From Saprospira sp. CCB-QB6 (GTDB lineage Bacteria > Bacteroidota > Bacteroidia > Chitinophagales > Saprospiraceae), in the NCBI RefSeq assembly GCF_028464065.1, contig NZ_CP116808.1:1263886-1327885 (forward strand): 64,000 nucleotides of DNA, given 5' to 3'. The notes beneath the pieces were generated by a model. It did not search any database and was not told the origin of the DNA. It saw nothing but the letters and a program-made list of their open reading frames with translations. Position 1 is the stretch's first letter. Every line of letters begins with the position of its first letter. The translations under genes were made by a program, and so were the position numbers. Of the stretch, positions 2,518 through 58,622 are shown one piece after another.

Positions 2518-2589
2518 ACAACGCTCAAAAAGGGGCAAAACTTAGGTTTCCCCCCTTTTTTTAGGCCCTAAAATCAATAGACTTCTAAA

Positions 2590-2670
2590 TTTCGCTGCTA
2601 AGCGAGTCTAGCTAATTTGTAGTAGGGTCAGTCCAGAAAAAAAAGATAGGGTCTTAGACATACTCCCCAA
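2590..2670 (+). repeat. Second repeat family (about 80 bp), copy 1: TTCGCTGCTAAGCGAG.CTAGCT.ATTTGTAGTAGGGTC.GTCCAGAAAAAAAAGATAGGG.CTTAGACA
   Basis: About 90% identical to 15965-16045. Both copies lie 3' of a large T9SS-tailed gene and are followed by AT-rich TTGCAA-containing motifs. Confidence 0.55.
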
Positions 2671-2671
2671 G

Positions 2672-2989
2672 CTAATTGTAATTTGCAAATTAAGCTGGGC
2701 GTCACGCCCACGTTAATTGTAATCTGCAAATTAAGCTGGGCGCCACGCCCACGTTAATTGTAATCTGCAAATTAGGCTGGGCGCCACGCCCACGTTAATT
2801 GTAATCTGCAAATTAGGCTGGGCGCCACGCCCACGTTAATTGTAATTTGCAAATTAGGCTGGGCGCCACGCCCACGTTAATTGTAATCTGCAAATTAAGC
2901 TGGGCGTCACGCCCAGGTTAATTGTAATCTGCAAAACAGGCGGGGGATTTTCCCAACACCAATTGTAATCCGCAGATTGGCCCAAAACC
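2672..2989. repeat. 41-bp tandem array, about 6 clean plus 2 degenerate units: TTAATTGTAATCTGCAAATTAAGCTGGGCG(C/T)CACGCCCACG
   Basis: Units start at 2672, 2713, 2754, 2795, 2836, 2877 and 2918. Each unit has a GGGCG-CCA-CGCCC hairpin (or CTGGGCGTCACGCCCAG) plus an AT-rich semi-palindrome TTAATTG..CAAATTAA. There are no unique spacers, so this is not CRISPR. Confidence 0.85.
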
Positions 2990-3010: not shown

Positions 3011-3040
3011 GGCCGCAGTTCCTTTTTAGGAACTGCGGCC
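3011..3040. terminator. Symmetric hairpin GGCCGCAGTTCC-TTTTTAGG-AACTGCGGCC, putative bidirectional terminator
   Basis: Perfect 11-bp stem read directly, 20 bp downstream of the stop of the minus-strand gene 3060..4136. Confidence 0.55.
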
Positions 3041-4136: not shown

Positions 4137-4182
4137 TACAAATGGTTTACTGAAAAAATAGGTATGTATTTATCTAGGAGGG

Positions 4183-4309
4183 TTTTGGGGCTGCCCCTGC
4201 GGCCTGCGGCCTTGGGTCGGGCTGTTTCGCAGCTCGCTATTCGCTCGGCCCTTCGGCGCTTGCAGCGCCTCGGTCTGGCCTAACGGCCACTGCTGTCCAT
4301 CCCTCAGCC
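4183..4309 (+). repeat. GC-rich modular repeat copy B (alpha-type: TTTTGGGGCTGCCCC...CGCAGCTCGCTATTCGCTCGGCCC...GGTCTGGCC...GGCCACTGCTGTCCATCCCTCAGCC)
   Basis: Read directly. The internal hairpin is GGCGCTTGCAGCGCC. Confidence 0.8.
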
Positions 4310-4505
4310 AGATTTAATCGCGCTGCTTTGGCCATAGTTTGCTATGAATTTTCTGCTAGGCCAGCTATTTTTTAAGGGCATAGCCTTCGCTATGGCTGAG
4401 AAAAATAGGGCCGACTAGCGGGAAATTGCTGCAAACTATAAAAGTGAGTGCGTTTAAATCTGGCTATTGCCTGCGGCCCTTCGGGCCTGTAGGAGGCAGA
4501 GGAGT

Positions 4506-5198: not shown

Positions 5199-5364
5199 CA
5201 GGGCCGAAGGCCCGCAAAGGAGCGTAGCGACGCGGCTGAGGGATGGACAGCAGTGGCCGCAGGCCAGACCAAGGCGGCAAAGCCGCCGCAGGGCCGAGCG
5301 ATCAGCGAGCTGCGAAACAGCCCGACCCAAGGCCGCAGGCCGCAGGGGCAGCCCCAACAAAAAA
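5199..5364 (-). repeat. GC-rich modular repeat copy C (alpha-type, minus orientation)
   Basis: AAAGGAGCGTAGCGACGCGGCTGAGGGATGGACAGCAGTGGCC...GGCCAGACC...GCAGGGCCGAGCGATCAGCGAGCTGCGAAACAGCCCGACCC...GGGGCAGCCCCAACAAAA. Provides the spurious 43-codon N-terminal extension of ORF 5243..6469. Confidence 0.8.
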
Positions 5365-10557: not shown

Positions 10558-10579
10558 TTTTTCCTGAGATTTTTTTCTT

Positions 10580-10699
10580 TTTTGGGGCTGCCCCGCCCTG
10601 CGGGCGGGTCGGGCTGTTGCGCAGCTCGCTATTCGCTCGGCCCTGCGCCAGCAAGCTGGCTGGGTCTGGCGCTGCGCGCCACTGCTCCATCCCTCAGCC
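10580..10699 (+). repeat. GC-rich modular repeat copy D (alpha-type), followed at 10704-10724 by hairpin CTGTGGGTT-TTC-AACCCACAG
   Basis: TTTTGGGGCTGCCCCGCCCTGCGGGCGGGTCGGGCTGTTGCGCAGCTCGCTATTCGCTCGGCCCTGCGCCAGCAAGCTGGCTGGGTCTGGC...CCACTGCTCCATCCCTCAGCC. Confidence 0.8.
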
Positions 10700-11906: not shown

Positions 11907-12039
11907 AGGAGCGAAGCGACTGGCCTAGCGATGTGCAGCAGTGGCGCGCAGCGCCAGACCCAGCCAGCTTGCTGGCGCAGGGCCGAGCGAATAGCGAGCT
12001 GCGCAACGTAGCGCCTGCCGTAGGCAGGAGGCCCCAAAA
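11907..12039 (-). repeat. GC-rich modular repeat copy E (beta-type, minus orientation)
   Basis: GGAGCGAAGCGACTGGCCTAGCGATGTGCAGCAGTGGCGCGCAGCGCCAGACCCAGCCAGCTTGCTGGCGCAGGGCCGAGCGAATAGCGAGCTGCGCAACGTAGCGCCTGCCGTAGGCAGGAGGCCCCAAAAC. Confidence 0.8.
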
Positions 12040-15514: not shown

Positions 15515-15676
15515 TTTTGGGGCCTCCTGCCTACGGCAGGCGCTACGTTCCGCAGCTCGCAGGTCTGCTCGGCCCTTCGCCGCCTGCGGCGGCTCGGTCT
15601 GGCCCTGCGGGCCACTGCTGCACATCGCTAGGCCGTTTGGCCTGCGGCCATGGGCTGCAGGTTTCAACCTACAGGC
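15515..15676 (+). repeat. GC-rich modular repeat copy F (beta-type) plus trailing hairpins GGCCTGCGGCC and CTGCAGGTTTCAACCTACAG
   Basis: TTTTGGGGCCTCCTGCCTACGGCAGGCGCTACGTTCCGCAGCTCGCAGGTCTGCTCGGCCCTTCGCCGCCTGCGGCGGCTCGGTCTGGCCCTGCGGGCCACTGCTGCACATCGCTAGGCC. Confidence 0.8.
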
Positions 15677-15964
15677 CAATATGATATAAATCCCCCCTAG
15701 GGCCAAGGCCCTAGGCTATTAAATCTATCATCCCCTCCTTCGAGGGGATTCGCCTTTCCTCCTGAACTTGAACAGTTAAGCGAACAAAATCTTTAACTAC
15801 CAATTATTCGCTTACTCTTCAAACATAAACTTAGCACCTAAGGGCCAATACAGAAAATTACGTCTCGGTCTAATTGACCAATAGAGCCAAACAAAAAGCC
15901 CCCTCGAAGGAGGGGGCGACTATTACTATTAGGACAAGGGCTTAAATACAACCGCATCCAATAC

Positions 15965-16075
15965 TTCGCTGCTAAGCGAGCCTAGCTGATTTGTAGTAGG
16001 GTCCGTCCAGAAAAAAAAGATAGGGCCTTAGACAGTCCTCCCTAGCTAAATGCATTTTGCAAGAAGGCCTTAAAC
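15965..16075 (+). repeat. Second repeat family, copy 2, followed by two ATGCATTTTGCARGAA motifs
   Basis: TTCGCTGCTAAGCGAGCCTAGCTGATTTGTAGTAGGGTCCGTCCAGAAAAAAAAGATAGGGCCTTAGACA. Compare 2590-2670. Confidence 0.55.
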
Positions 16076-16157
16076 AACTCTTTAGAGCCATATGCATTTT
16101 GCAGGAAACTCTAAATAAGGCCGAAGAAGGAGAACAAAAGCAACAACTAAAGATGAG

Positions 16158-16279
16158 CGGCCTAGCGATGCGGCGGGGTGGCGCAAAGCGCCAGACCCAG
16201 GCGGCAAAGCCGCCGCAGGGCCGAGCAGACCTGCGAGCCCCAAAGCGTAGCGCCTGCCGTAGGCAGGAGGCCCCAAAAC
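16158..16279 (-). repeat. GC-rich modular repeat copy G (beta-type, minus orientation)
   Basis: GGCCTAGCGATGCGGCGGGGTGGCGCAAAGCGCCAGACCCAGGCGGCAAAGCCGCCGCAGGGCCGAGCAGACCTGCGAGCCCCAAAGCGTAGCGCCTGCCGTAGGCAGGAGGCCCCAAAAC. Confidence 0.8.
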
Positions 16280-16374: not shown

Positions 16375-19300
16375 CTAAGGCTTAACGATTTCAAAGTTCA
16401 GTTGGCTTTGGGTCGTTTCGATTTGAACATTGAGGTAATAGGTACCTGCGGGCAGGTCTCGGATGGCGTCCAGTGTAATGAGGTCGCCAGCGCGAACGGT
16501 TTGGCTGCTCGTAAAGACTTGGCGGCCGAGCACATCTAGGAGTTTGAAATTCACTTGGCTCGTAGTTTTGAGCTGGCTAAAGCGAACATTAACAAAATCG
16601 CTAGCGGGGTTCGGGAATACCGTAACATCGATACTTGCGGCTTCCTTATTATTTACTGCGCGAACTTCAGAGTACTCAAAGTCTCCGTTGAAGTCGACTT
16701 GGCGCAGGCGGTAATAAGTGAGATTTTCGTAGCTATTATTATCGGTATAGCTATAGTAATTGGCGGTTGAGCTATTGCCCTGACCTTGGACAAAATCGAT
16801 TTGGCTAAAGTCAGTTTCATAGTCAAACATGCGTTCTACTTCAAAGCCGCGGTTATCTCTTTCTGTTTCGGTGGCCCAAGAGAGGAGCACAGAAGAAGAA
16901 GATTGGCGTTCGGCATCGAAGAAGAGCCATTCGATGGGGAAATCGACATAAGTGTTAGCATCGCGCCAGTCGTTATCGTCGAGTCCGTCATTGTTGGGAG
17001 TTGGAGCGCCAGTACCTAGGGCGCTACCGTTCACATTATCATCAAAGAGATCGGCTAGTCCGTCGTTATCTGCATCAATCCAGAAAGGAGAGCTAGGATC
17101 GAGGAAGGGAGGAGCCATATTATTTGTATAGCTCGCACCATTGAGGTTATCTAACCAATCGGGCAGGCCATCGCCATCGCTATCGATATTGGGATAATGA
17201 GTGGGGTTACCGCCATTGGTTACATAAGCGGCAGCCATTTGGATAATTTCGTCAGCGGCATTGCCATCGCCGGCGGTAGCGCCACCGAATCCGTTATCAA
17301 AGCCTTCTGCCCAGTCGTATCCGCCATCATTATCAGAGTCGAGATCGAGATAATCTACGGGAGCTGTTCCATCATTGTTATCCTCATTGGGAGTAGCGCC
17401 GATGTTTGCGCCTGTATTTTGGTTAGCGGCATCTAGGCCTTCGTAGATATCGAGTACTCCGTTGCCGTTGGCATCGGCTCCAGAGGGAGCGGCGAAAGTG
17501 GGGCAAGTAGAGCAAACGGCTTCTAGGTAATCTGGAATACCGTCATTATCGGCATCAATATCATAAATATCGGGAACACCGTCGCCGTCGGTATCTAGGG
17601 TATTGATTGCACCAGCTTGGAGATCAGACCAGCCGTCGCCATTAGCGTCGGTGATGGGTCCATCTTCAATTTGGCCATCGAGGGTACCGTTAGCGGGAGA
17701 GTCGGTATTGGCGGCTCCGGTTACTGCGCCTGCTGCGGCTTCGACTACATCTGTAATTCCGTCATTATCGCTATCGAGATCGAGGAAGTTGGGCGTAGCG
17801 TCGGCATCTGCGTTGGCATCGGGATAGCTATTGGGTTGGCCATCATTGTCGTTATCGGTTCCGGTCAAGATAAGTACAGCAGCGATATTATCGGCAGTAC
17901 CATCATTGTTGGGGTCACCGTCTACGGCATCGGCAAAACCATCGCCATCTGCATCGGTAAATGTATCTACGCGGCCATCGCCATCGGCATCGGTTCCATA
18001 GGCTTCCAAGATATCTTGTACCCCATCGTTATCGCTATCGAGGTCATAGATATTGAGGAGACCGTCGGCATCGAAATCGCCATTGGGGTAAGTATCGGGT
18101 TGGCCGTCGTTGTTATTATCGGCTCCAGTAAGGATAAGCACCTGAGCGCTATTCTCGGCGGTACCGTCATTTCCGACATCGCCATCGAGGACATCATGCA
18201 AGCCGTCATTATCGGTATCGATAAAGTCGTCGGCAAAGCCGTCTCCGTTAGTATCGGTTCCCCCAGCTTCCACGACATCGGCGATACCGTCGTTATCGCT
18301 ATCGAGGTCATAGATATTGAGGAGACCGTCGCTATCTGCGTCTCCGTTAGGATAATTATCGGGAGTACCGTCATTATTGACATCATTGCCTGTAAGGATA
18401 AGTGCTTGAGCGCTATTTTCGGCGGTACCGTCGTTTCCGACATCACCATCGAGAACATCATGTAAGCCATCGTTATCGGTATCGCTGAAGTTATCGGCTA
18501 GGCCATCTCCGTTGGTATCGGTTCCGCCAGCTTCCACTACATCAGTAATACCATCATTATCCGCATCGAGATCGAGTTGGTTAGGGATACCATCGCCATC
18601 AACATCATTGCTAGGATAGCTATCAGCGAAGCCGTCATTATTAGTATCTGCGCCTGTAACTTGGAGAGCATTAGCTGTATTTTCAGCAGTGCCATCATTT
18701 CCGACATCGCCATCTACGGTATCATGCAAGCCATCGCCATCGGCATCCACAAAATTATCAGCAAAGCCATCGCCATCTGCATCGGTCCCACCAGCTTCTA
18801 CCACATCAGGAATACCGTCATTATCGCTATCGAGGTCAAATTGGTTAGGAATGCCATCGCCATCATTATCGGCAAAGAAGTCATTATTACCATCTGCATC
18901 GGTATCCAACAAGAGAGAAGTAGAGTTAGCGATTAGACAGCTAGGTTGAGGACCACAGGGGCTAGTGCCTTCGGGGCCATCGGTATCATCGTTATCTACA
19001 GCATCTACAAGGCCATCGCCATCAGAGTCAGTCAAATCATCGAGAATGCCGTCTCCGTTGGTATCTACGCCACCAATTTCAACTAGGTCAGGAATACCGT
19101 CATTATCGTTATCCAAATCTAGGTGATTGGGGATGCCATCGCCATCGAGGTCAAGATTAGCGCAAGTCCCGTTAGCGTTAAGTCCGCCACAAGTGGGGAA
19201 ATCAGCATCAGCATAATTGGGGATTCCATCAGCATCTAAGTCGGAATCAGGATCAGGAAGGCCATTAGTACAGCTCCAGCCGTTTACCCCTTCAAAAAAG

Positions 19301-22300
19301 GCGGCACAATAATCGGGATCTGCATAATCAGGTGTACCATCACCATCATGATCGCCATTATAAGCTTCCATAGCATCGGGAATACCATCATTATCTTGGT
19401 CTAGTCCTGCTTTAGGGTCTCTCCAATCTAGTTCGGCATTGCCTGCATCAGCATTAGGGTGGCTATTCGGGGTAAGGCTCGTATTTGTAGCATCTGTACT
19501 ACTGGTATTATTATCAAAACCATCTAAAAGGCCATCGCCATCAGCATCAATAGCGCCAGCAATACCTGTATTGGCATTGGGGCTATCGCTACCATCTACA
19601 AGGCCATCACCATTTGTATCATGTCCTTCGATTAAGTCACCTTCTCCGTCATTATCGGTGTCAAAATCAAGATAGTCTGGATTATCAATAGCATCTGTAT
19701 TTACAGGAGTAATTCCAGAGCCTGCACCACCAAAATTAGCATTATCATTATCATAGGCATCATCAATACCATCTCCATCAGCATCGTTAGAAGCTGGAGC
19801 GATATAGCCTGTAGTAGACTGCCCTTCTGTATTATCTACGATACCATCATTATCGGCATCAATATCGAGAAAGTTCGGGTTATTATCACCATCCTGATTT
19901 GCTGTAGTATAGCTATCGGGGTAGCCATCATTGTTGCTATCAGTAGTACCAATAGGAGTCGTTCCACTATTACCTCCATCCGTAGTATTTGACCAACCGT
20001 TGCCATCCGCATCATTGGTTGTTGCATCATCAATTTGACCGTCAGCATTAGCATCAGAAGCGGCAAGGCCAGCTTCAACAACATCTAAGATACCATCATT
20101 ATCGGCATCAAGATCATAGATATTAAGAACACCGTCGCCATCGAAATCGCCTTCAGTATAGTTATCTGGGCGGCCATCGCCTCCAGCATCTGTACCTGTA
20201 GCAATTAGTGGATTCGTTCCAGCATCGCCAGCTACGCCATCATTATTGGCATCTGAGTCATATTGATTAGAGAAGCCATCAGCATCGGGGTCTGTAAAGT
20301 TATCTACTTGACCGTTGCCATCCACATCAGCACCACCAGCTTCTACTAAATCGGGGATACCATCATTATCGGCATCAAGGTCCCAAGCGTTAAGCAAGCC
20401 ATCACCGTCAGTATCAGCGATAGGATAGTTATCCGGATTACCATCATTGTTACCATCAGGACCAGTAACTGCTAAGGCTCCAGCTGTATTTTCAGCGATA
20501 CCATCATTTCCAACATCGCCGTCTACAGCATCATAAAAGCCATCAGCATCTGTATCGTTGAAGCCATCAATAAAGCCATCCCCATCAGCATCCACTCCAC
20601 CGTATTCTACTACGTCGGCGACACCATCGTTATCTGAATCCAAATCATAAGCATTGAGATAATTATCCCCATCAGCATCAGCAGTAGGATAATTATCTGG
20701 ACGACCATCATTGTTGCCATCAGGACCAGTAACCACTAAGGCTCTAGTGGTATTTTCAGCGACACCATCATTTCCAACATCACCATCTACTATATCATGG
20801 AAGCCATCATTATCGGTATCGTTGTAGCCATCAATTACACCATCACCATCGGCATCTACACCACCAGCTTCTAATACATCCGAAATGCCATCATTATCCG
20901 CATCTAAATCAAGGTAATTAAGTAACCCATCACTATCTGCATCGGCATTGGGATAACTATCAGGAGCGCCATCATTATTAGCATCTGTTCCTGTTAAGAT
21001 AAGTGCATTTGCAGAATTATCTGCAACACCATCATTATTTGTATCCCCATCAATAGGATCATGGAAACCATCCCCATCAACATCAGCAAAAGCATCTACT
21101 TGGCCATCACCATCTGTATCGGTTCCTCCTGCTTCTACAATGTCAGGAATACCATCATTGTCCGCATCAAGGTCATAGATATTGAGAATACCATCTCCAT
21201 CAAAGTCTCCTTCAGGATAACTATCGGGTTGGCCATCACTATTACCATCTGTTCCTGTAAGCTGAAGGGCTTGAGCCAAATTCTCAGCTGTACCATCATT
21301 ACCTACATCTCCATCAACAATGTCATTATACCCATCGCCATCAGTGTCTGTAAACCCATCTAGCTTACCATTGCCATCTACATCCGTTCCTCCTACTTCT
21401 ACAACATCTGGAATGCCATCATTATCTGAGTCCAAATCTATACTGTTGGGAATACCATCATTATCCGTATCTAGATTGGCGATAGCAGTTCCTGCTGTTC
21501 CTACAGCCGTATAGCTTACCGCTACATTAGATATACAAGAAGCAGCCACCCCACAAAAAGCAGGATCTACATTTGCAGATGTAGCCATAGTTATTGTGAG
21601 GATACCATCATCATTGGCCGTATTCCAAGAAGCAGTAGGTATACTAATTGGATTCATATCCATTGGCGGATTTGAGCAATCAGCATACCCAGTATTATTA
21701 GAGTTTTGACGGTTAAATGGGCCCAAAATAGTTCCATCTTCTAGTTGAAGTGAAAATGTAGAACCATCAAATCCATAAGATCCAAAAACAGACAAAGACA
21801 AAGAAGGGTCAGCGCCTACATCTAAAGTATTCACAGTAAAGGTCAACGTATGCGTTGGAGCAACAGTATTCAAACATTCATCAGAAGAAGTTGAGGTTGA
21901 AGGACCTCCAACCGCATCATCATAAATATCCACCAAACCATCGCCATCAGCATCAATATTAGAATCTACTTGACCATCGCCATCGGTATCTACTCCCCCT
22001 GCTTCTACTAGATCAGGAATGCCATCATTGTCCGCATCCAAATCTACATGATCGGGCGAACCGTCTCCATCTGAATCAAAGTTAGCACAAACGCCATTCA
22101 CAATCCCTGAACAATAAGGAAAATCAGCATCCGAGTAGTTAGGAATACCATCACCATCCAAATCTCCAGTCGGATCAGGCAAACCATCAGCACAATCCCA
22201 ACCATTTACCCCCGCAAAAGTAGCCGCACAGAAATCAGGATCAGCATAATCTGGCGTACCATCACCATCATGATCTCCTTTATAAATTTCTACATTATCC

Positions 22301-23730
22301 GGAATACCATCATTGTCATCATCAATATCACAAGCACTCAATAAGTTATCCTCATCAATCTCCGCCACATAGTTGGGGTTCTCAATAGGAACATACAAAG
22401 AAATAGATCCCCCAGGATCGCCATCTACAGTACCGTTACGAAATCCATCAGAGTGTGTTCCACCAGCACCACCATTAGCTGTAAAGGTTAAGTTGGCAGG
22501 AATTGCAGCCAAAGAATAGAGCAAAGCTCCTCCTCCACCACCTCCACCAGGGCCGTGATAAATATTGGTATTCAAGGTCTGTCCATCCCCTCCAGATACA
22601 TCTACGGTAAGGTTCCCCTGATAAACTTGGGTCTTAAGAACAACGCTACCTCCAGCGCCTCCTCCTCCACCACCATCAGGTGCACCAACAGGGTTTACCG
22701 CCACAGGAGAAGTACCACGCACATCAATAATGCGCCCATTCCCCACAATCGTATCCGCAAAAATAATTACAATTCCACCACCATCTGCAGCAGTAGAAGG
22801 GTTGTTGGTCGATACCCAACCAGGTCCACCAGCTCCACCCAAAAATACTTTGTCCTGAGCCAAATAAGGAGTCAAACTTAGCCCCCCTACCCCACCGGCA
22901 GGAATACCATTAACATTACACCAGCGACTACCACCAATTCCTCCTTGGCCGTAGTTACTTCCTCCTCCTCCTCCAGAATCACCAGAGACACCAGATCCAC
23001 CACCATTGGCCCGCTTTCCACGACCATAGTTCGTAGCCGTATTATCCACAACAATACCACTGCCCTTTTCCCATGAATCAGGCGCCGTATTGGGCAAAGT
23101 ATATTGGTTGTTAGGATCAATAGAACAGTTGTCAGGCGTACCATTTACCGACATTTGAATGCCCTGATACCCCTTTCCTAAAAGATCAATATCCGCATTC
23201 AATACCAATTTATCCGTCACCAAAGCCAACACTCCACCAACACCATTGGCTTCACTCCAGTCTCCTGCCGTCAAAGTAGAATTAACCTCCACCACATTGT
23301 TTCCATAGTCTGGAATACGCACAACCTGCACCACTCCTGCTACATTATAATTCCGAATCAATGAGAATCGAGGCGTTATCACATTCCCTACAATATTCCC
23401 AATTTCAAAAAATTCATAATTCCCCGCCTCATTAATGTTCAAAACATCCCCAGAAGCAGCCGTGTTCGTTACATCTATATCCGCTCCCTTCATCTGAATA
23501 ATCAAGGCCTTGTCCCCAGGTGCAAAAGCCGCGGGATCCTGCACCGTAATCGTATGCGCACAACTCGGATCACAGGGGTCACATACCGGTAAATTTAACG
23601 ATGTTACTGCCGTATAGTCATTGATGATCCCCCCAATACTCACCTGAGCAATGGCGGAACTCCCATACAACAAACAGCAAACAAGGACAAAAAATGCCCT
23701 CCTTAAGTAGTTTGTAATTTTCACGCTCAT
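16375..23730 (-). CDS. Giant (2451 aa) secreted adhesin-like protein with thrombospondin type-3 Ca-binding repeats and a T9SS C-terminal sorting domain
   Basis: Signal peptide MSVKITNYLRRAFFVLVCCLLYGSSAIAQ. N-terminal Gly-rich region (GGGGGAGGS, GPGGGGGGGA) suggests a beta-helix. More than 25 copies of DxDxDGxxDxxDxDxDNDGIPD (TSP3-like). C-terminus ...LPAGTYYLNVQIETTQSQLNFEIVKP is Por-tail-like. Confidence 0.85.
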   Translation of the reverse strand: MSVKITNYLRRAFFVLVCCLLYGSSAIAQVSIGGIINDYTAVTSLNLPVCDPCDPSCAHTITVQDPAAFAPGDKALIIQMKGADIDVTNTAASGDVLNINEAGNYEFFEIGNIVGNVITPRFSLIRNYNVAGVVQVVRIPDYGNNVVEVNSTLTAGDWSEANGVGGVLALVTDKLVLNADIDLLGKGYQGIQMSVNGTPDNCSIDPNNQYTLPNTAPDSWEKGSGIVVDNTATNYGRGKRANGGGSGVSGDSGGGGGSNYGQGGIGGSRWCNVNGIPAGGVGGLSLTPYLAQDKVFLGGAGGPGWVSTNNPSTAADGGGIVIIFADTIVGNGRIIDVRGTSPVAVNPVGAPDGGGGGGAGGSVVLKTQVYQGNLTVDVSGGDGQTLNTNIYHGPGGGGGGGALLYSLAAIPANLTFTANGGAGGTHSDGFRNGTVDGDPGGSISLYVPIENPNYVAEIDEDNLLSACDIDDDNDGIPDNVEIYKGDHDGDGTPDYADPDFCAATFAGVNGWDCADGLPDPTGDLDGDGIPNYSDADFPYCSGIVNGVCANFDSDGDGSPDHVDLDADNDGIPDLVEAGGVDTDGDGQVDSNIDADGDGLVDIYDDAVGGPSTSTSSDECLNTVAPTHTLTFTVNTLDVGADPSLSLSVFGSYGFDGSTFSLQLEDGTILGPFNRQNSNNTGYADCSNPPMDMNPISIPTASWNTANDDGILTITMATSANVDPAFCGVAASCISNVAVSYTAVGTAGTAIANLDTDNDGIPNSIDLDSDNDGIPDVVEVGGTDVDGNGKLDGFTDTDGDGYNDIVDGDVGNDGTAENLAQALQLTGTDGNSDGQPDSYPEGDFDGDGILNIYDLDADNDGIPDIVEAGGTDTDGDGQVDAFADVDGDGFHDPIDGDTNNDGVADNSANALILTGTDANNDGAPDSYPNADADSDGLLNYLDLDADNDGISDVLEAGGVDADGDGVIDGYNDTDNDGFHDIVDGDVGNDGVAENTTRALVVTGPDGNNDGRPDNYPTADADGDNYLNAYDLDSDNDGVADVVEYGGVDADGDGFIDGFNDTDADGFYDAVDGDVGNDGIAENTAGALAVTGPDGNNDGNPDNYPIADTDGDGLLNAWDLDADNDGIPDLVEAGGADVDGNGQVDNFTDPDADGFSNQYDSDANNDGVAGDAGTNPLIATGTDAGGDGRPDNYTEGDFDGDGVLNIYDLDADNDGILDVVEAGLAASDANADGQIDDATTNDADGNGWSNTTDGGNSGTTPIGTTDSNNDGYPDSYTTANQDGDNNPNFLDIDADNDGIVDNTEGQSTTGYIAPASNDADGDGIDDAYDNDNANFGGAGSGITPVNTDAIDNPDYLDFDTDNDGEGDLIEGHDTNGDGLVDGSDSPNANTGIAGAIDADGDGLLDGFDNNTSSTDATNTSLTPNSHPNADAGNAELDWRDPKAGLDQDNDGIPDAMEAYNGDHDGDGTPDYADPDYCAAFFEGVNGWSCTNGLPDPDSDLDADGIPNYADADFPTCGGLNANGTCANLDLDGDGIPNHLDLDNDNDGIPDLVEIGGVDTNGDGILDDLTDSDGDGLVDAVDNDDTDGPEGTSPCGPQPSCLIANSTSLLLDTDADGNNDFFADNDGDGIPNQFDLDSDNDGIPDVVEAGGTDADGDGFADNFVDADGDGLHDTVDGDVGNDGTAENTANALQVTGADTNNDGFADSYPSNDVDGDGIPNQLDLDADNDGITDVVEAGGTDTNGDGLADNFSDTDNDGLHDVLDGDVGNDGTAENSAQALILTGNDVNNDGTPDNYPNGDADSDGLLNIYDLDSDNDGIADVVEAGGTDTNGDGFADDFIDTDNDGLHDVLDGDVGNDGTAENSAQVLILTGADNNNDGQPDTYPNGDFDADGLLNIYDLDSDNDGVQDILEAYGTDADGDGRVDTFTDADGDGFADAVDGDPNNDGTADNIAAVLILTGTDNDNDGQPNSYPDANADADATPNFLDLDSDNDGITDVVEAAAGAVTGAANTDSPANGTLDGQIEDGPITDANGDGWSDLQAGAINTLDTDGDGVPDIYDIDADNDGIPDYLEAVCSTCPTFAAPSGADANGNGVLDIYEGLDAANQNTGANIGATPNEDNNDGTAPVDYLDLDSDNDGGYDWAEGFDNGFGGATAGDGNAADEIIQMAAAYVTNGGNPTHYPNIDSDGDGLPDWLDNLNGASYTNNMAPPFLDPSSPFWIDADNDGLADLFDDNVNGSALGTGAPTPNNDGLDDNDWRDANTYVDFPIEWLFFDAERQSSSSVLLSWATETERDNRGFEVERMFDYETDFSQIDFVQGQGNSSTANYYSYTDNNSYENLTYYRLRQVDFNGDFEYSEVRAVNNKEAASIDVTVFPNPASDFVNVRFSQLKTTSQVNFKLLDVLGRQVFTSSQTVRAGDLITLDAIRDLPAGTYYLNVQIETTQSQLNFEIVKP

Positions 23731-23776
23731 CTAAATGCTGTTAAAATGTGTTTGATAAAAATGCTTATGTAATTTA

Positions 23777-23915
23777 TTTTTTGGGGCTGCCCCTCCTTTC
23801 AGTCGGGTCGGGCTGTTTCGCAGCTCGCTCTTCGCTCGGCCCTGCGCCGCCTCTGGCGGCTGGGTCTGGCCCTTCGGGCCACTGCTGTCCATCCCTCAGC
23901 CAGTCGCTTCGCTCC
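23777..23915 (+). repeat. GC-rich modular repeat copy H (alpha-type)
   Basis: TTTTTTGGGGCTGCCCCTCCTTTCAGTCGGGTCGGGCTGTTTCGCAGCTCGCTCTTCGCTCGGCCCTGCGCCGCCTCTGGCGGCTGGGTCTGGCCCTTCGGGCCACTGCTGTCCATCCCTCAGCCAGTCGCTTCGCTCC. Confidence 0.8.
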
Positions 23916-26439: not shown

Positions 26440-26587
26440 GTCCAAGCGGGCCAAAGGCCCGCCGGCCTAGCGATGTGCAGCAGTGCGGCGCAGCCGCAGA
26501 CCAAGGCCGTCAGGCCGCAGGGCCGAGCAGACTTGCGAGCTGCGAAACGTAGCGCCGACGAGCGTAGCGAGGCGGAGGCCCCAAAAC
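26440..26587 (-). repeat. GC-rich modular repeat copy I (beta-type, minus orientation)
   Basis: GGCCTAGCGATGTGCAGCAGTGCGGCGCAGCCGCAGACCAAGGCCGTCAGGCCGCAGGGCCGAGCAGACTTGCGAGCTGCGAAACGTAGCGCC...GGCGGAGGCCCCAAAAC. Confidence 0.8.
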
Positions 26588-28445: not shown

Positions 28446-28584
28446 GATTTAGGAATCTCTTTATCATCCCTGTAGGTTAAAACCTACAGCAACAATGGCA
28501 TTACTGCGCAATGAACTATAAATAAGGGTTTAAACCCTCACAAAGTTAATCATTTGAATGCACAAGATGCTGAATAGTTGGTGA

Positions 28585-28709
28585 TTTTGGGGCCTCCGCC
28601 TCGCTTCGCTCCTCGGCGCTACGTTCCGCAGCTCGCTGTTCGCTCGGCCCTGCGCTGCCAAAGGCAGCTTGGTCTGGCCCTTCGGGCCACTGCTGCACAT
28701 CGCTAGGCC
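28585..28709 (+). repeat. GC-rich modular repeat copy J (beta-type); hairpin CTGTAGGTTAAAACCTACAG lies just upstream at 28470-28489
   Basis: TTTTGGGGCCTCCGCCTCGCTTCGCTCCTCGGCGCTACGTTCCGCAGCTCGCTGTTCGCTCGGCCCTGCGCTGCCAAAGGCAGCTTGGTCTGGCCCTTCGGGCCACTGCTGCACATCGCTAGGCC. Confidence 0.8.
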
Positions 28710-28849
28710 AGGCGGGCCTTCTAAATCCATAAACAGATTTGGCTCTTTCTATAGACTTTCGTAATTTTTTAGGCCCTTAGGGCTAACCATCATCCCCTTT
28801 GGGGTATTACTCATTGAGCCCACAAGCTTGCCCCAGAAACCTCTTTTTT

Positions 28850-30311: not shown

Positions 30312-30482
30312 AGGAGACTGTTTAAAATTTTGTGTCTACCCTTCTCTGCGCCTAGGGACAAGCCCCTAGGCGATTATTGGCCAAATCCTAACAAGCTAAA
30401 GGCCCAAATTTTATTCTAATACACAAAATCCTGAACAGTCTCGAGTAAAGCAAGGCCTTGCTCCTTACTAGAATAATAGATC

Positions 30483-32324: not shown

Positions 32325-32484
32325 GGCGGCGAAGCCGCCAAAAGGAGCGCAGCGACGCGGCTGAGGGATGGACAGCAGTGGCCCGCAGGGCCAGACCAAG
32401 CTGCCTTTGGCAGCGCAGGGCCGAGCGAACAGCGAGCTGCGGAACAGCCCGACCCGCCCGAAGGGCGGGGCAGCCCCTAAAAAG
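32325..32484 (-). repeat. GC-rich modular repeat copy K (alpha-type, minus orientation)
   Basis: GGCGGCGAAGCCGCCAAAAGGAGCGCAGCGACGCGGCTGAGGGATGGACAGCAGTGGCCCGCAGGGCCAGACCAAGCTGCCTTTGGCAGCGCAGGGCCGAGCGAACAGCGAGCTGCGGAACAGCCCGACCCGCCCGAAGGGCGGGGCAGCCCCTAAAAAG. Confidence 0.8.
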
Positions 32485-41414: not shown

Positions 41415-41553
41415 AAGGGCCGAAGGCCCGCGGCTGAGGGGCTGTAGCCGTGCCGCCGCAGGCGGCAGACCAAAGCGCTGCAAGCGCCGCAGGGCCGAGC
41501 GAGCAGCGAGCGGCGCAAGGGCACGGCCGCCGCAGGCGGCAGGCCCCAAAAAA
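41415..41553 (-). repeat. GC-rich modular repeat copy O (alpha-prime type, minus orientation), right arm of the pair
   Basis: GGGCCGAAGGCCCGCGGCTGAGGGGCTGTAGCCGTGCCGCCGCAGGCGGCAGACCAAAGCGCTGCAAGCGCCGCAGGGCCGAGCGAGCAGCGAGCGGCGCAAGGGCACGGCCGCCGCAGGCGGCAGGCCCCAAAAAAAG. Confidence 0.8.
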
Positions 41554-41612
41554 AGAAAAGGACCAGCACCGAAGTACTGGACCTTTAAAGGGATTAGCAA
41601 AAGCTAATTAAA

Positions 41613-45504: not shown

Positions 45505-45561
45505 GTTTTAGTCTAGCCTACTTTGTACTATGGCTGCATCTTCTGAAATAGGAGGATGCAG

Positions 45562-45699
45562 TTTTTTTTGGGGCCTGCCGCCTGCGGCGGCCGTGCCCTT
45601 GCGCCGCTCGCTGCTCGCTCGGCCCTGCGGCGCTTGCAGCGCCTTGGTCTGCCGCCTGCGGCGGCACGGCTACAGGCCACTAGGCCAGTCGCTTCGCTC
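45562..45699 (+). repeat. GC-rich modular repeat copy P, left arm of a tight inverted pair
   Basis: TTTTTTTTGGGGCCTGCCGCCTGCGGCGGCCGTGCCCTTGCGCCGCTCGCTGCTCGCTCGGCCCTGCGGCGCTTGCAGCGCCTTGGTCTGCCGCCTGCGGCGGCACGGCTACAGGCCACTAGGCCAGTCGCTTCGCTCC. Confidence 0.8.
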
Positions 45700-45813: not shown

Positions 45814-45960
45814 GGGCCGCTAGGCCCTAAATGGCCTAGCGATGTGTAGGGGTGGCCCGCAGGGCCAGACCGAGCCAGCTTGCTGCCGAAGGGCCGAGCG
45901 AAGAGCGAGCCCCGGAACGTAGCGCCCTGAGCCCTTGAGGGCGAGGGGAGGCCCCAAAAA
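45814..45960 (-). repeat. GC-rich modular repeat copy Q (beta-type, minus orientation), right arm of the pair; overlaps the 3' end of CDS 45820..48000
   Basis: GGCCTAGCGATGTGTAGGGGTGGCCCGCAGGGCCAGACCGAGCCAGCTTGCTGCCGAAGGGCCGAGCGAAGAGCGAGCCCCGGAACGTAGCGCCCTGAGCCCTTGAGGGCGAGGGGAGGCCCCAAAAAC. Confidence 0.8.
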
Positions 45961-49750: not shown

Positions 49751-49898
49751 TTTTTTGGGCCTCCCCTCGCCCTCAAGGGCTCAGGGCGCTACGTTCCGGG
49801 GCTCGCTCTTCGCTCGGCCCTTCGCCAGCAAGCTGGCTCGGTCTGGCCCTGCGGGCCACCCCTACACATCGCTAGGCCATGATGGCCTTCGGCCATCC
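49751..49898 (+). repeat. GC-rich modular repeat copy R (beta-type) plus trailing hairpin ATGATGGCCTTCGGCCATCC
   Basis: TTTTTTTGGGCCTCCCCTCGCCCTCAAGGGCTCAGGGCGCTACGTTCCGGGGCTCGCTCTTCGCTCGGCCCTTCGCCAGCAAGCTGGCTCGGTCTGGCCCTGCGGGCCACCCCTACACATCGCTAGGCC. Confidence 0.8.
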
Positions 49899-51539: not shown

Positions 51540-52199
51540 TTAGGAGGCTATGGCTGTTTGTATGGTAGCATCTATATCTTCTACATACTCTTCAAATACG
51601 GCACTTATTTGTATAACATCTGGAAATGTTAAATCCGAGGCCTGATCATTGTAATGCAGCACTTTATTCCTCTTTAAAACAATACTTTGGATCAAGTCTT
51701 TATGCTGAATATATGAAGAAACCTTATCCAAATCTATCCCCATATAAGAAAATGCTACCTTCGTCCTATCTGGGTTTCCCGAAATGAAATCATCAAAACC
51801 ATTTTCATTTTCTTGTAGCAAGAATATCGCTTCTGCATTTTCCCTTTTTTCTAAATCCTTCGTTGCTTTATTTACAGCTGCTTTAGAAAACTTATTTTCT
51901 TTATCTCTTGATGCAATTACGATAACATTTTTAGGGAGATTTGCATTAGCCACCCTTTGCTGATACTCTTTATATATCTCTGATAAAACGTCTTTCAAAT
52001 AGCTTTCCAAACAAACACAAAGTTGTACTAATGCCGACTTCGTCAGAAAGTTAGCATGTTCTATGACAAACTGCTCAGCTCCTGAGCCACTACTCTGGCC
52101 AAGTTGTACCTTATGGCTGTCATTTACAAAGGTCCTTAAATCATTTAAATTGTCTATATATCTTTTGTAGGATGTTGTTTTTAGGTTACTCATAGCCAT
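51540..52199 (-). CDS. HEPN-like protein (Rx4H motif; MAE_28990/Swt1-like by context), second gene of a DUF262-HEPN module
   Basis: 219 aa, predicted all-helical. C-terminal region IQSIVLKRNKVLHYNDQ gives R-x4-H, the HEPN RNase signature. Overlaps the upstream DUF262 gene by 14 bp. About 35% GC. Confidence 0.45.
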   Translation of the reverse strand: MAMSNLKTTSYKRYIDNLNDLRTFVNDSHKVQLGQSSGSGAEQFVIEHANFLTKSALVQLCVCLESYLKDVLSEIYKEYQQRVANANLPKNVIVIASRDKENKFSKAAVNKATKDLEKRENAEAIFLLQENENGFDDFISGNPDRTKVAFSYMGIDLDKVSSYIQHKDLIQSIVLKRNKVLHYNDQASDLTFPDVIQISAVFEEYVEDIDATIQTAIAS

Positions 52200-53217
52200 C
52201 TATTTCTGAGAGTTTTGAAATCCATAGCTCACGACGTTTTAGGATAGAGCTTTTTTTCTGTGTTCCCCCTGATAGTTTTTGTTGGAACTTAGGCATTTGA
52301 CAAAGCTGATTAAATTTTTCTTGAATTTCCTCCTTATGCGCTAAAGCCCAATCGCGTCTCCCTGTCAAAGACCACATGATTAGGTCATAATGTGCATTAC
52401 TATGTCTAGGCTTCTCTTTGGTTACATCCATAAAAGGTTGTTTAAATACCTGTACACAAGTATCTAAAGTCTCGGTAAAGAGTTTCTTTAACTCTTTAAT
52501 TTTGGTTGCTGAAAGATTCTGATTTTCAGCCATACACTGATCCAACCACTTAGCATGGTTACTATCATAAGTCTTTAAATCCTTTTGTAGGGCGAAGTAC
52601 CGTAAAACTAGCTCTTCATCCCTTCGATCATCCTTATCCTTGGCTAACTGAAAAGCAGGAAGACCCTGATCGGCTAATTCTTTCAGTAGAGAGTCAAAAC
52701 TTCCAGGGTAAATTGCATGTCGAATCTCTTGATCACTCAGCTTAACAGCTCCTTGGTTCAATCGAGCAAAAATCTCATTCACTAGCCCTTTGGGGTTGTT
52801 CTTTCTCAACACCACACAACGAATAGTTGTATTTTCTAAATCTGCCTGATAAGTGCCTAACTCTGAGAACTTCTTATTATTCAATTCTGGATATACAGTC
52901 AATCCTTCTAAAGCAAATTCGTCCGCAAAAAATCGTCGTATAGTAGTAATTCTTTGTACACCGTCAATCACTTCATGGCTTCCATCCTCTCGCTCTGCAA
53001 AATAACAAGCAGGTAAAGGAATACGCATTAAGCAAGATTCGATGAATTTAGAGCTCCGCCCTTCACCATCTTTATCCCATTTGTATTTTCGCTGAAAGTC
53101 GGGATCTAAAATTAGTTTTCCATCTCGGACCCTATCATTTAAAGTCTCAAAAGGATAATCAATAGGATAAAGGTTCAAGACCTTCATATTCTCTTCCGTG
53201 TTTGTATTACTGGCCAT
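52186..53217 (-). CDS. DUF262 (GmrSD N-terminal / ParB-Srx-like NTP-binding) domain protein
   Basis: N-terminal LYPIDYPFETL...LDPDFQRKYKWDKD (QR.YxW box) and EVIDGVQRITTI (DGQQR box), both hallmark DUF262 motifs. No DUF1524/HNH C-terminal domain is recognisable. 343 aa. AT-rich codon usage. Confidence 0.7.
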   Translation of the reverse strand: MASNTNTEENMKVLNLYPIDYPFETLNDRVRDGKLILDPDFQRKYKWDKDGEGRSSKFIESCLMRIPLPACYFAEREDGSHEVIDGVQRITTIRRFFADEFALEGLTVYPELNNKKFSELGTYQADLENTTIRCVVLRKNNPKGLVNEIFARLNQGAVKLSDQEIRHAIYPGSFDSLLKELADQGLPAFQLAKDKDDRRDEELVLRYFALQKDLKTYDSNHAKWLDQCMAENQNLSATKIKELKKLFTETLDTCVQVFKQPFMDVTKEKPRHSNAHYDLIMWSLTGRRDWALAHKEEIQEKFNQLCQMPKFQQKLSGGTQKKSSILKRRELWISKLSEIDGYE

Positions 53218-54428: not shown

Positions 54429-54731
54429 ATCCACGGAGTCAATCTGAGATGTCCGTAGACCTCCGTGGCCGCCACGGAGCCAATCTGAGATGTCCGTAGA
54501 CCTCCGTGGCCACCACGGAGCTAATCCGAGATGTCCGTAGACCTCCGTGGCCGCCACGGAGCCAATCTGAGATGTCCGTAGACCTCCGTGGCCACCACGG
54601 AGCCAATCTGAGATGTCCGTAGACCTCCGTGGCCACCACGGAGCTAATCCGAGATGTCCGTAGACCTCCGTGGCCGCCACGGAGCTAATCCGAGATGTCC
54701 GTAGACCTCCGTGGCCACCACGGAGCCAATC
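54429..54731. repeat. 41-bp tandem array of about 7.4 units: ATC(T/C)GAGATGTCCGTAGACCTCCGTGGCC(G/A)CCACGGAGC(C/T)A
   Basis: Each unit has a CTCCGTGG-CC(G/A)-CCACGGAG hairpin (8-bp stem) and an ATCTGAGAT palindrome. Units differ only at 3 positions and there are no spacers. Starts about 22 bp upstream of the start codon of 53265..54407. Confidence 0.85.
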
Positions 54732-54974
54732 CATCCGAATGGTCGCAGTCCGTGGCGGATTCTAAGCCCCTCTTTTGATTTTCCTATGGTCCCCCTAATC
54801 AAAAAATAAAAGGTGCTTAGGCCCTAAAATAAGCGATCCTTTATTTAGAAGGACAAAAAAAGGCTCCAAACTAAGGTTTGGAGCCTTTCTGGGCCATCAA
54901 ATTCTTGAGCATAATAAGCTTGAGCGAGGAATTAGGCCAGCCAATAATAGCGAAAGCGGCAAGAAGGCCCGCAG

Positions 54975-55196
54975 CCCACAACAAGCCCTTTAGGCTGCAG
55001 TTCGACGGCCAGAGGGAGTAACCGATTTGCAGCAGGCGGCGCAGCCGCCTTGGCCGAAGGCCAAACGGCCCAGCGCTGCGGAGGGGTGGCCGTAAGGCCA
55101 GACCAAAGCCGCCGCAGGCGGCTGCAGGGCCGAACAGACCTGTGAGCCCCGCAGCATAGCGGCGGCCAGCTTTGCTGGCCGCGGGCCCCAAAAAAT
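54975..55196 (-). repeat. GC-rich modular repeat copy S (gamma-type, minus orientation), preceded by a GCAGTTCGACG..AGGGAGTAACC module
   Basis: GGCCCAGCGCTGCGGAGGGGTGGCCGTAAGGCCAGACCAAAGCCGCCGCAGGCGGCTGCAGGGCCGAACAGACCTGTGAGCCCCGCAGCATAGCGGCGGCCAGCTTTGCTGGCCGCGGGCCCCAAAAAA. Confidence 0.8.
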
Positions 55197-58479: not shown

Positions 58480-58622
58480 GGCGGCAAAGCCGCCGCAGGC
58501 TGAGGGGCTGTAGCAGGGCCGCCGAAGGCGGCAGACCTAGCGGGCATAGCCCGCGCAGGGCCGAGCAAACAGCGAGCTGCGCAATGGCCCGACCCGACCG
58601 CAGGAAGGGGCAGCCCCAAAAC
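58480..58622 (-). repeat. GC-rich modular repeat copy U (alpha-prime type, minus orientation), right arm of the pair
   Basis: GGCGGCAAAGCCGCCGCAGGCTGAGGGGCTGTAGCAGGGCCGCCGAAGGCGGCAGACCTAGCGGGCATAGCCCGCGCAGGGCCGAGCAAACAGCGAGCTGCGCAATGGCCCGACCCGACCGCAGGAAGGGGCAGCCCCAAAACC. Confidence 0.8.

Follow-up and report, generated by a model that had tools for sequence, protein, structure and literature searches.

Two tandem arrays of 41-bp units, each unit carrying a short hairpin, lie about 50 kb apart in a 64-kb stretch of the genome of Saprospira sp. CCB-QB6 (contig NZ_CP116808.1, positions 1,263,886 to 1,327,885; the whole stretch is called the window). Two proteins encoded in the window are 100% identical to proteins of this strain. 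From what is observed of their anatomy, relatedness, polymorphism, covariation and distribution, we lean towards the view that array 1 and array 2 each represent the same dispersed composite repeat, a non-coding element of the Saprospira lineage in which a leader is joined to a hairpin-bearing variable-number tandem repeat (VNTR). A member of such a family would have a leader of about 85 conserved bases and, after it, 41-bp units in variable number; the leader is matched robustly at array 1 and at a third copy (15962-16130), and weakly at array 2. If the arrays do belong to one dispersed family of leader and units, their common period and hairpin geometry are inherited and not convergent.

The 41-bp unit and its leader

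Both arrays are present as an earlier, sequence-only reading of the window had described them, by Tandem Repeats Finder (TRF), by consensus matching and by a hairpin scan (Table 1). Allowing up to three mismatches, the quoted consensus units match six times in array 1, seven times in array 2 and never in shuffled sequence; the two arrays are the sole non-coding minisatellites that TRF finds in the window, and no real open reading frame (ORF) runs across them. The array 1 core AATTGTAATCTGCA occurs eight times at a spacing of exactly 41 bp, and six units form hairpins with 6-7-bp stems and a 3-nt loop. Read on the minus strand, the array 2 unit is GTCTACGGACATCTC(A/G)GATT(A/G)G followed by CTCCGTGG-(C/T)GG-CCACGGAG, and all seven units contain a 19-bp near-palindrome. 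The RNA folding z-scores relative to shuffles are -8.6 for array 1 and -9.0 for array 2.

The unit sequences had been called unrelated, and a direct comparison of the two window consensus units (cyclic and ungapped, with p-values from shuffles) indeed gives only 17 identities in 41 positions (p = 0.66), but the arrays are linked through intermediates (p < 0.001 to 0.009) and by a common 14-mer box. Window array 1 matches its CP110854 ortholog (L001) at 23/41 positions (p < 0.001), and this ortholog in turn matches the minus strand of array 2, in register, at 22/41 (p = 0.009). Arrays at other loci match the same ortholog at 23-27/41, the best being L150 (27/41, p < 0.001), and the minus strand of array 2 matches L045, an array of S. 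grandis DSM 2844, at 23/41 (p = 0.001). A gapless alignment accommodates the array 1 orthologs, the minus strand of array 2 and two DSM 2844 arrays, L045 and L054 (8.7 and 7.5 copies by TRF). The unit common to them joins a 22-nt segment peculiar to each locus, which frequently has TTAG at its end, to a 19-nt palindrome, CTCYG-NNN-nnn-NNN-CRGAG; window array 1 lacks the ends of this palindrome. The quasi-palindromic 14-mer TTAGGCCCTAAAAT has just two occurrences in the window, one next to each array (expected count 0.07). With up to one mismatch allowed, a search of 1.2 Mb of Saprospira DNA adds two matches in L045 to those next to the two arrays, and no others; when the two elements are aligned directly, this box (14-17 nt) is all that aligns. 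Judged from these sequences, the window arrays are probably related via the intermediates and both members of one dispersed repeat family. The other arrays and the in-register chain also make chance an improbable source of the shared period and the stem-triloop-stem design, as the sequence-only reading supposed. Solo hairpin units are rare (roughly 1.2 Mb searched). The 22-nt segment of L045 and L150 agrees best with the L001 units if its reading direction is opposite to that of the leader, a weak similarity of 11/22 identities in which the segment between the hairpin arms looks inverted relative to the L001 units.

The second component, leader-1, is a conserved flank of array 1 that aligns with the flanks of L045 in DSM 2844 and of L149, L150 and L158 from a related metagenomic organism. 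An nhmmer profile built from these four flanks only recovers the array 1 leader at E = 1e-10 and its orthologs at 3e-12 to 2e-16, and leader-1 adjoins arrays at no fewer than five independent loci (E = 1e-10 to 1e-24). The alignment reads the last bases of the leader as the 3' arm of the hairpin of its own locus. Its sequence is conserved and an RNA structure for it is unsupported, support being confined to the unit hairpin. The third window copy, which the sequence-only reading had overlooked, lies outside the training set and retains E = 8.6e-10 when the model contains nothing from array 1 or array 2; it spans about 15962-16034 in this reduced model and 15962/15964-16039/16041 in fuller ones. 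The flank of array 2 is matched only when array 2 sequences are in the model, and a flank-only search scored 5.8 bits in CP110854, 3.7 bits in Lewin and nothing in the window, with a maximum of 3.5 bits among 1000 shuffles. The array 2 leader, not being recovered without circular training, counts as only weakly similar to leader-1, so the assignment of array 2 to the family draws on register, hairpin design, the 14-mer box and the intermediates. An exact Bacteroidota-type promoter (TTTG / TAnnTTTG) was not found in the leader; TTTC-N19-TAATTTG in the window leader matches the Bacteroidota consensus inexactly and is not conserved, and a sigma-70 promoter scan of the array regions is uninformative for Bacteroidota. 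Transcription from the leader is therefore conjecture.

Strain variation and hairpin covariation

The sequence-only reading had proposed comparing copy number among strains, and this comparison reveals wide variation. Array 1 has 5.6 units in CP110854, 6.6 in the window, 7.4 in Lewin, 7.3 in a metagenome contig from ENA and 0 in DSM 2844, always with a period of 41 bp. Array 2 has 12 units in Lewin, 7 in the window and exactly 1 in CP110854, which reads CCACGGAG-22 nt-CTCCGTGG, and is reduced in DSM 2844 to the remnant GATTAGCTCCCTGG, its terminator, leader and array all missing. At array 1, DSM 2844 lacks about 470 bp (2532 to about 2995) comprising the upstream hairpin, leader and array, with the junction aaaaaggggca|taaaaaaggccg. 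The array 1 unit reads TTTTGCAAATGCAGATTAG + CTCTGGCG-cca-CGCCAGAG in CP110854, TTTTGCAAATGCAGATTAG + CTCYGGGC-atc-GTTCAGAG in Lewin and TTAATTGTAATCTGCAAATTAAGC + TGGGCG-cca-CGCCCA in the window, i.e. its hairpin half has changed between strains, and the ENA contig contains one CP110854-type unit within a Lewin-type array. The arrays thus gain and lose units between strains, from 0 to 12 copies, and combine different unit variants in mosaic fashion; over time a locus exchanges its units for others, with the 41-bp length and the hairpin retained. These strain differences indicate hypervariable VNTR loci evolving in concert.

The hairpin itself covaries. The 19-nt palindrome can be folded as an 8-bp stem with a 3-nt loop, and among 36 distinct hairpin variants 93.8% of cells are paired, compared with 75% in shuffles (0/500 reach the observed value) and 37-51% in slid controls. 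Double-sided changes number 19, 19 and 12 in the three inner stem pairs; at stem position 4 (Y/R) every one of the four combinations occurs, and this position is probably free of constraint. The pattern used to collect metagenome arrays prescribed the five outer pairs only, which makes the complementarity of the inner ones independent of the search. Such covariation can arise by selection on the stem-loop or by template-switch 'correction' of quasi-palindromes, and both fit the data.

The site of the third leader-1 copy, between a 1127-aa helicase gene and a giant adhesin gene, is occupied differently in other strains. The window has the leader-1 element there (15640-16160), and Lewin and DSM 2844 (L177 9585-10240, L179 9585-9990) have leader-2 with a 21-bp VNTR of 14.7 units in Lewin and 3.0 in DSM 2844; in CP110854 this neighbourhood is rearranged. 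Leader-2 is a second dispersed Saprospira element, of about 245 nt with a 25-nt internal inverted repeat, present in more than 15 copies (about 19 blastn matches, several partial). Minisatellites with periods of 21, 22 or 42 bp and unrelated sequences stand at the ends of several copies. Its presence at the third-copy site in both strains argues for quick turnover (or mobility) of such intergenic elements, and leader-2 lends the composite-repeat reading additional support. The adhesin gene is a giant 2451-aa ORF (16375-23730, minus strand), probably encoding an adhesin, with 264-bp (88-aa) coding tandem repeats at 17881-21465 that abound in Asp/Gly motifs; in Lewin and DSM 2844 its counterparts have a type IX secretion system (T9SS) sorting domain.

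Distribution and genomic context

Saprospira DNA was sampled with a pattern from an abundant GC-rich intergenic element. The resulting 120 stretches (L024-L143), each of 8 kb and with few exceptions from S. grandis DSM 2844, make up 1.02 Mb together with the window, and in this DNA the periods of non-coding, non-CRISPR arrays were surveyed. Five arrays have a period of 41 bp, two of 42 bp and one of 43 bp; four have a period of 21 bp, one of 22 bp and one of 30 bp. Thirteen of the 14 therefore fall at 21-22 or 41-43 bp, about two and four helical turns, and they belong to several unrelated unit families. The search for further 41-bp arrays, a check named by the sequence-only reading, is positive in DSM 2844 (L045, L054 and L032) and in metagenomes, where a family-level dimer pattern hit 33 stretches, about 20 of them genuine 41-bp arrays. 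These have 3-11 units, on contigs of 37-61% GC, with differing 22-nt segments and complementary inner stems. The pattern imposed both the 41-bp spacing, so that the scan is silent on whether 41 is exclusive, and the conservation of the outer stem. Two arrays of the related metagenomic organism, L150 and L147, are syntenic with L045 and L054 and have the same 41-bp period with changed inner stems. L146 is from Bacteroidota (T9SS domain), and the 11-unit L152 lies beside a CheR gene, with closest named relatives in Armatimonadota at 41-48% identity, which makes its contig look Armatimonadota-like. L160 and L172 have a common conserved terminal hairpin. The family is probably scattered through Saprospira genomes, and arrays that look like it occur in other bacteria.

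All-versus-all comparison and Pfam scans identify the neighbours of the arrays as unrelated housekeeping genes, the exceptions being a weak paralog pair (L172-L054) and an IS91-family transposase gene beside L166. L166, on a metagenome contig of 61% GC, is a 41-bp x 5.8 hairpin array lying 350 bp downstream of this rolling-circle transposase gene (Y2_Tnp, Zn_Tnp_IS91; gene and array occupy L166 1293-2441 and 2789-3024), a single case that may be chance. Viral contigs gave 0 matches for the array 2 unit and for the family pattern, and a plasmid database gave none for the leader with two units. Rfam 15 yielded no family at E <= 10 and no match at gathering score in the window, with only sub-threshold chance matches around both arrays. 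A literature search found nothing on Saprospira repeats, and titles retrieved for '41-bp repeat' included no relevant bacterial tandem repeat.

Within the window, ORF and domain context agrees with the placement of array 1 in a convergent intergenic region and of array 2 ahead of a membrane-protein/DUF262/HEPN unit. Array 1 is flanked by convergent genes, one for an S8/T9SS peptidase and one alanine/ornithine-racemase-like. Array 2 lies between hutH and the gene for a 380-aa membrane protein, ending 22 bp before the ATG at 54407, and GmrSD_N (DUF262) and HEPN genes follow. Its suggested link to these last two is incidental: Lewin and CP110854 have array 2 and neither of the two genes, and as the pair is absent from Lewin, DSM 2844 and CP110854 it does not go with the array; strains with and strains without array 2 have the membrane protein gene. 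The pair itself (51540-53217, minus strand) is strain-specific and of defence type, a DUF262/GmrSD_N protein that matches PADLOC NsnA (E = 2e-76) and PD-T4-2_A, with a RiboL-PSP HEPN protein; it is not at the array 2 locus in any of those three strains. Terminator-like hairpins bound the elements (Table 1). The upstream hairpin of array 1 is a perfect 10-bp stem in CP110854 and Lewin, and the downstream one is common to the array 1 element and the convergent racemase-like gene and is found in all strains, including DSM 2844.

Two other kinds of repeat were encountered. The GC-rich element used for sampling is structured, about 130-170 nt long and present in 21 copies in the 64 kb, in both orientations. 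Its conserved cores are GGCCTAGCGATG.., CAGACC, GMAGGGCCGAGC, GCGAGC and GGAGGCCCCAAAA; the hairpins between the cores differ in sequence and stay complementary, and it has no Rfam match. A 23-base pattern from it has at least 120 matches in GTDB, and 79 of the 80 among those listed are in S. grandis DSM 2844. Genuine CRISPR arrays are also present in DSM 2844 (L077 43-2634 and L089 5553-7991), with the 36-nt repeat ATACTAAACCCATTGCAGGCGAAGCAGCATTGAAAC and a period of about 71; this repeat is unrelated to the 41-bp units. A partial leader-2 copy adjoins the CRISPR array in L077.

Table 1. Positions of the arrays, leaders, hairpins and dispersed elements (window coordinates unless a sampled stretch is named)
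Feature	Position	Strand	Details
Array 1 by TRF	2666-2935		period 41, 6.6 copies, 95% matches
Array 1, six well-kept 41-bp units	2672..2917	+	each TTAATTGTAATCTGCAAATTA(A/G)GC + TGGGCG-(C/T)CA-CGCCCA
Array 1, two degenerate leader-distal units	2918..2989	+	core AATTGTAATCYGCA in 41-bp register at 2920, 2961
Terminator-like hairpin and T-run, upstream edge of array 1 element	2532..2562	+	degenerate in window
Quasi-palindromic box TTAGGCCCTAAAAT	2561..2574	.	14-mer beside array 1
Leader-1, conserved flank of array 1, about 85 nt	2588..2671	+	ATTTCGCTGCTAAGC..CTAGCTAATTTGTAGTAGGG..CCAGAAAAAAAAGATAGGG..TTAGAC..
Bidirectional terminator hairpin bounding array 1 element	3011..3040	.	13-bp stem, T-run
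Third leader-1 copy	15962..16041	+	nhmmer E = 9e-15
About two degenerate units of ~42 nt after third leader	16042..16130	+	ATGCATTTTGCA recurs 42 nt apart
Array 2 by TRF	54431-54731		period 41, 7.3 copies, 95% matches
Array 2, seven 41-bp units and terminal half-hairpin	54429..54728	-	
Array 2, degenerate leader-proximal unit	54729..54770	-	direct-repeat family D4 reaches 54772, 80% identity
Array 2, leader-like flank	54753..54830	-	includes box TTAGGCCCTAAAAT at 54817-54830; weak leader-1 similarity
Terminator hairpin downstream of hutH, upstream edge of array 2 element	54857..54890	-	
Leader-2	30342-30440		
Leader-2 in sampled stretches (examples)	L110 2233-2491; L051 7382-7624; L060 2076-2261 and 5625-5810; L082 4087-4169; L177 9660-9850; L179 9690-9775		
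GC-rich element (copies near)	184-330, 4182-4315, 5265-5354, 10574-10680, 11921-12019, 15548-15639, 16158-16258, 23773-23906, 26463-26560, 28581-28714, 32358-32481, 35773-, 36944-, 41193-, 41432-41555, 45556-45685, 45832-45930, 49751-49857, 55066-55167, 58246-, 58532-58621		

Competing explanations and known systems

Beyond the anatomy and history of the arrays, the mechanism of expansion, any mobility, and any transcription or binding are matters of inference. In a dispersed leader-unit family, array length would change by slipped-strand mispairing or unequal recombination promoted by the hairpins, and the palindrome would be kept either by selection on the stem-loop, as RNA or single-stranded DNA, or by template-switch correction between its arms. 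The elements would be selfish or near-neutral intergenic passengers, by analogy with BOX, BrickBuilt and the mycobacterial interspersed repetitive units (MIRUs), and effects on neighbours would be side effects. Each would bring a terminator hairpin at its upstream edge, perhaps a leader promoter, and a hairpin-rich tract whose length varies and which at array 2 sits directly upstream of the membrane protein gene.

A number of observations weigh against this reading. The direct identity of the two window units is at chance level, and without array 2 in the model its flank has no match in a 1.44-Mb database. No transposase is linked to the arrays, and terminal inverted repeats were not found: of eight elements compared at their 170-nt ends, seven have a best inverted match no higher than the 95th percentile of shuffles, and that of the eighth (array 1 of L001) scores 23, above the 95th percentile of 19 and below the shuffle maximum of 24. 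The element is consequently not filed as a strict MITE (a miniature transposable element with inverted repeats), and it has no conserved tail module here. No target-site duplication is clear: a 7-bp AGGGGCA stands at both ends of array 1 in comparison with the empty site of DSM 2844, which microhomology deletion explains equally well, and the unit remnant kept at the array 2 site of that strain indicates deletion there. The 41-nt length is retained despite heavy sequence turnover, and the periods cluster at 21-22 and 41-43 bp. At four loci (Lewin array 1, array 2, L150 and L158) the leader-sense strand is more stably folded than the antisense, with -18 versus -12 kcal/mol per unit as an example; a preference for the opposite strand is nowhere more than marginal, and three loci have no strand asymmetry. 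Taken together, length retention, sense-strand folding and period clustering hint at constraint beyond a purely neutral model, and a structural constraint on unit length is possible, arguably strengthened by the clustering. At its furthest this would make leader-associated 41-nt arrays a widespread undescribed functional class, in Bacteroidota and at least one other phylum, acting as cas-less, spacer-less RNA arrays with a processed transcript or as phased protein scaffolds; the clustering, which extends over unrelated unit sequences and two leader families, would then reflect dedicated array-building or binding machinery, beyond inheritance and slippage. We think this quite unlikely.

Of the functions such constraint might serve, a non-coding RNA array gene is conceivable, though we judge it unlikely. 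By analogy with the processing of CRISPR RNA (crRNA) and ToxI, the leader would hold a promoter and the transcript would be a multi-hairpin RNA that either sequesters an RNA-binding protein or is processed into pieces of 41 nt, with a 22-nt variable part and a 19-nt hairpin handle in each. The layout at array 1 suits this (upstream terminator, sequence-conserved leader, repeats, downstream terminator), as do the covarying inner stem pairs, the better folding of the leader-sense strand at the four loci above and the persistence of elements at orthologous loci over species-level divergence. Yet the leader has no exact Bacteroidota-type promoter, no Rfam family matches and no partner gene recurs; loops and inner stems vary freely, leaving no conserved loop binding motif, and at stem position 4 (pair 7-19) C·A is as frequent as U·G on the sense strand. 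Three loci also have no strand asymmetry, and DSM 2844 has lost whole elements, a loss that may or may not be tolerated. The sequence-only reading had instead suggested protein-binding, iteron or recombinase arrays, a proposal that is unsupported as it stands, with no rep, par or recombinase gene beside the arrays. In its general form, modelled on sopC or plasmid iterons, a 41-bp unit of about four helical turns would offer its palindrome to a protein dimer along a single side of the helix, in nucleoid organisation or regulation. The conserved outer half-sites CTCYG/CRGAG in an otherwise variable unit, the strict 41-bp period at all family loci, the 21-22 or 41-43-bp periods of unrelated Saprospira minisatellites and the second quasi-palindromic box adjoining the arrays would all accord with such a scaffold. 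A sequence-specific binder leaves unexplained, however, why the uncontacted inner stem bases change and stay complementary; the outer-stem conservation in metagenome arrays was imposed by the search pattern, window array 1 lacks the half-sites, no par, rep or regulator gene is adjacent and the arrays are dispensable between strains. A scaffold accordingly strikes us as improbable, and for the supposed binding geometry shared by unrelated sequences common descent is the simplest explanation.

That two unrelated minisatellites merely coincide in a 41-bp period and a GC hairpin is very improbable. The chance-level direct identity and the marginal similarity of the array 2 leader would permit it, but the chain through orthologous and paralogous arrays is significant and in register, the 14-mer box stands beside both arrays, five non-coding arrays in 1.02 Mb have exactly this period and the hairpin design recurs at all family loci. 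Least credible of all is an origin in type III toxin-antitoxin repeats (ToxI-like) or a degenerate or orphan CRISPR. Type III antitoxin repeats are roughly 34-45 nt long, a range that includes the 41-nt unit; array 2 is directly upstream of a gene, and the leader-like flank and degenerate distal units are reminiscent of CRISPR. Pfam and PADLOC nonetheless detect no ToxN, AbiQ, CptN or TenpN-like gene after any array examined, the membrane protein has no match in either and occurs without an array in DSM 2844, and what lies downstream of array 1 is the 3' end of a convergent gene, with no co-oriented one. The sequence-only reading had already set CRISPR aside, rightly: the units are 95% identical with no unique spacers, and there are no cas genes among the flanking genes. 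On these defining features (toxin gene, spacers, cas genes) both type III antitoxins and CRISPR are refuted.

As copies of one leader-unit family, the arrays add a hairpin-bearing, leader-linked minisatellite to the bacterial repeats BOX, BrickBuilt, MIRU and the neisserial intergenic mosaic elements (NIME), with arrays of the same design in unrelated metagenomic taxa. They provide Saprospira with ready-made, highly polymorphic VNTR markers and account for short-read assembly breaks at these intergenic sites. Should a function or dedicated mechanism prove true, the family would be a tractable entry point, its arrays being short and naturally variable among four sequenced strains and one of them (array 2) lying just upstream of a gene.

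Known repeats resemble the Saprospira arrays in part. BOX, of pneumococci, has the form boxA-boxB(n)-boxC with a boxB of about 45 bp and two conserved end modules; MIRUs are 46-101 bp long and often carry small overlapping reading frames. Both are, like the Saprospira arrays, dispersed and intergenic, with a variable-number central module, hairpin potential and use as strain markers, but belong to other phyla and have other sequences, and in comparison with BOX the Saprospira arrays have a single conserved flank and a locus-specific half of the unit that differs between loci. The F-plasmid centromere sopC lies beside sopAB and consists of 12 x 43 bp, an inverted repeat and the same binding sequence being present in every unit; plasmid iterons are of ~22 bp. 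What these have in common with the Saprospira arrays is a palindrome repeated in tandem, in units about four (or two) helical turns long, whereas the Saprospira arrays are chromosomal and at many loci, have no par/rep genes and vary the inner palindrome with compensation. ToxI, CptI, TenpI and CRISPR likewise have short tandem hairpin units, a leader-like flank and possibly a terminator after the array, from which the Saprospira arrays differ in having no toxin gene, cas genes or unique spacers. The repetitive extragenic palindromes (REPs) and bacterial interspersed mosaic elements (BIMEs), mobilised by REP-associated tyrosine transposases (RAYTs) and having GTAG/CGTC heads (PMC3733652), are also GC-rich imperfect intergenic palindromes whose stems vary with pairing kept and which can cluster. 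REPs are mostly single or in inverted pairs and number hundreds of copies, whereas Saprospira units run head-to-tail with solo units rare; a head next to the palindrome was sought in the two window arrays, L045 and L150, and only array 2 has a GTAG, 3 nt from the stem. The precedent in Bacteroidota for an element of leader and minisatellite is BrickBuilt of Porphyromonas gingivalis, a MITE combined with a minisatellite of 23-nt units that has leader and tail modules and small inverted-repeat ends (PMC4596501). It differs from the Saprospira arrays in the length of its unit (23 versus 41 nt) and in its tail and inverted-repeat ends, and there is no sequence similarity between them. Common to both are dispersed copies that are always intergenic, spacer-less tandem units with a conserved leader, and copy numbers that vary between strains; the covarying 8-bp stem-loop of the Saprospira units sets them apart from BrickBuilt.

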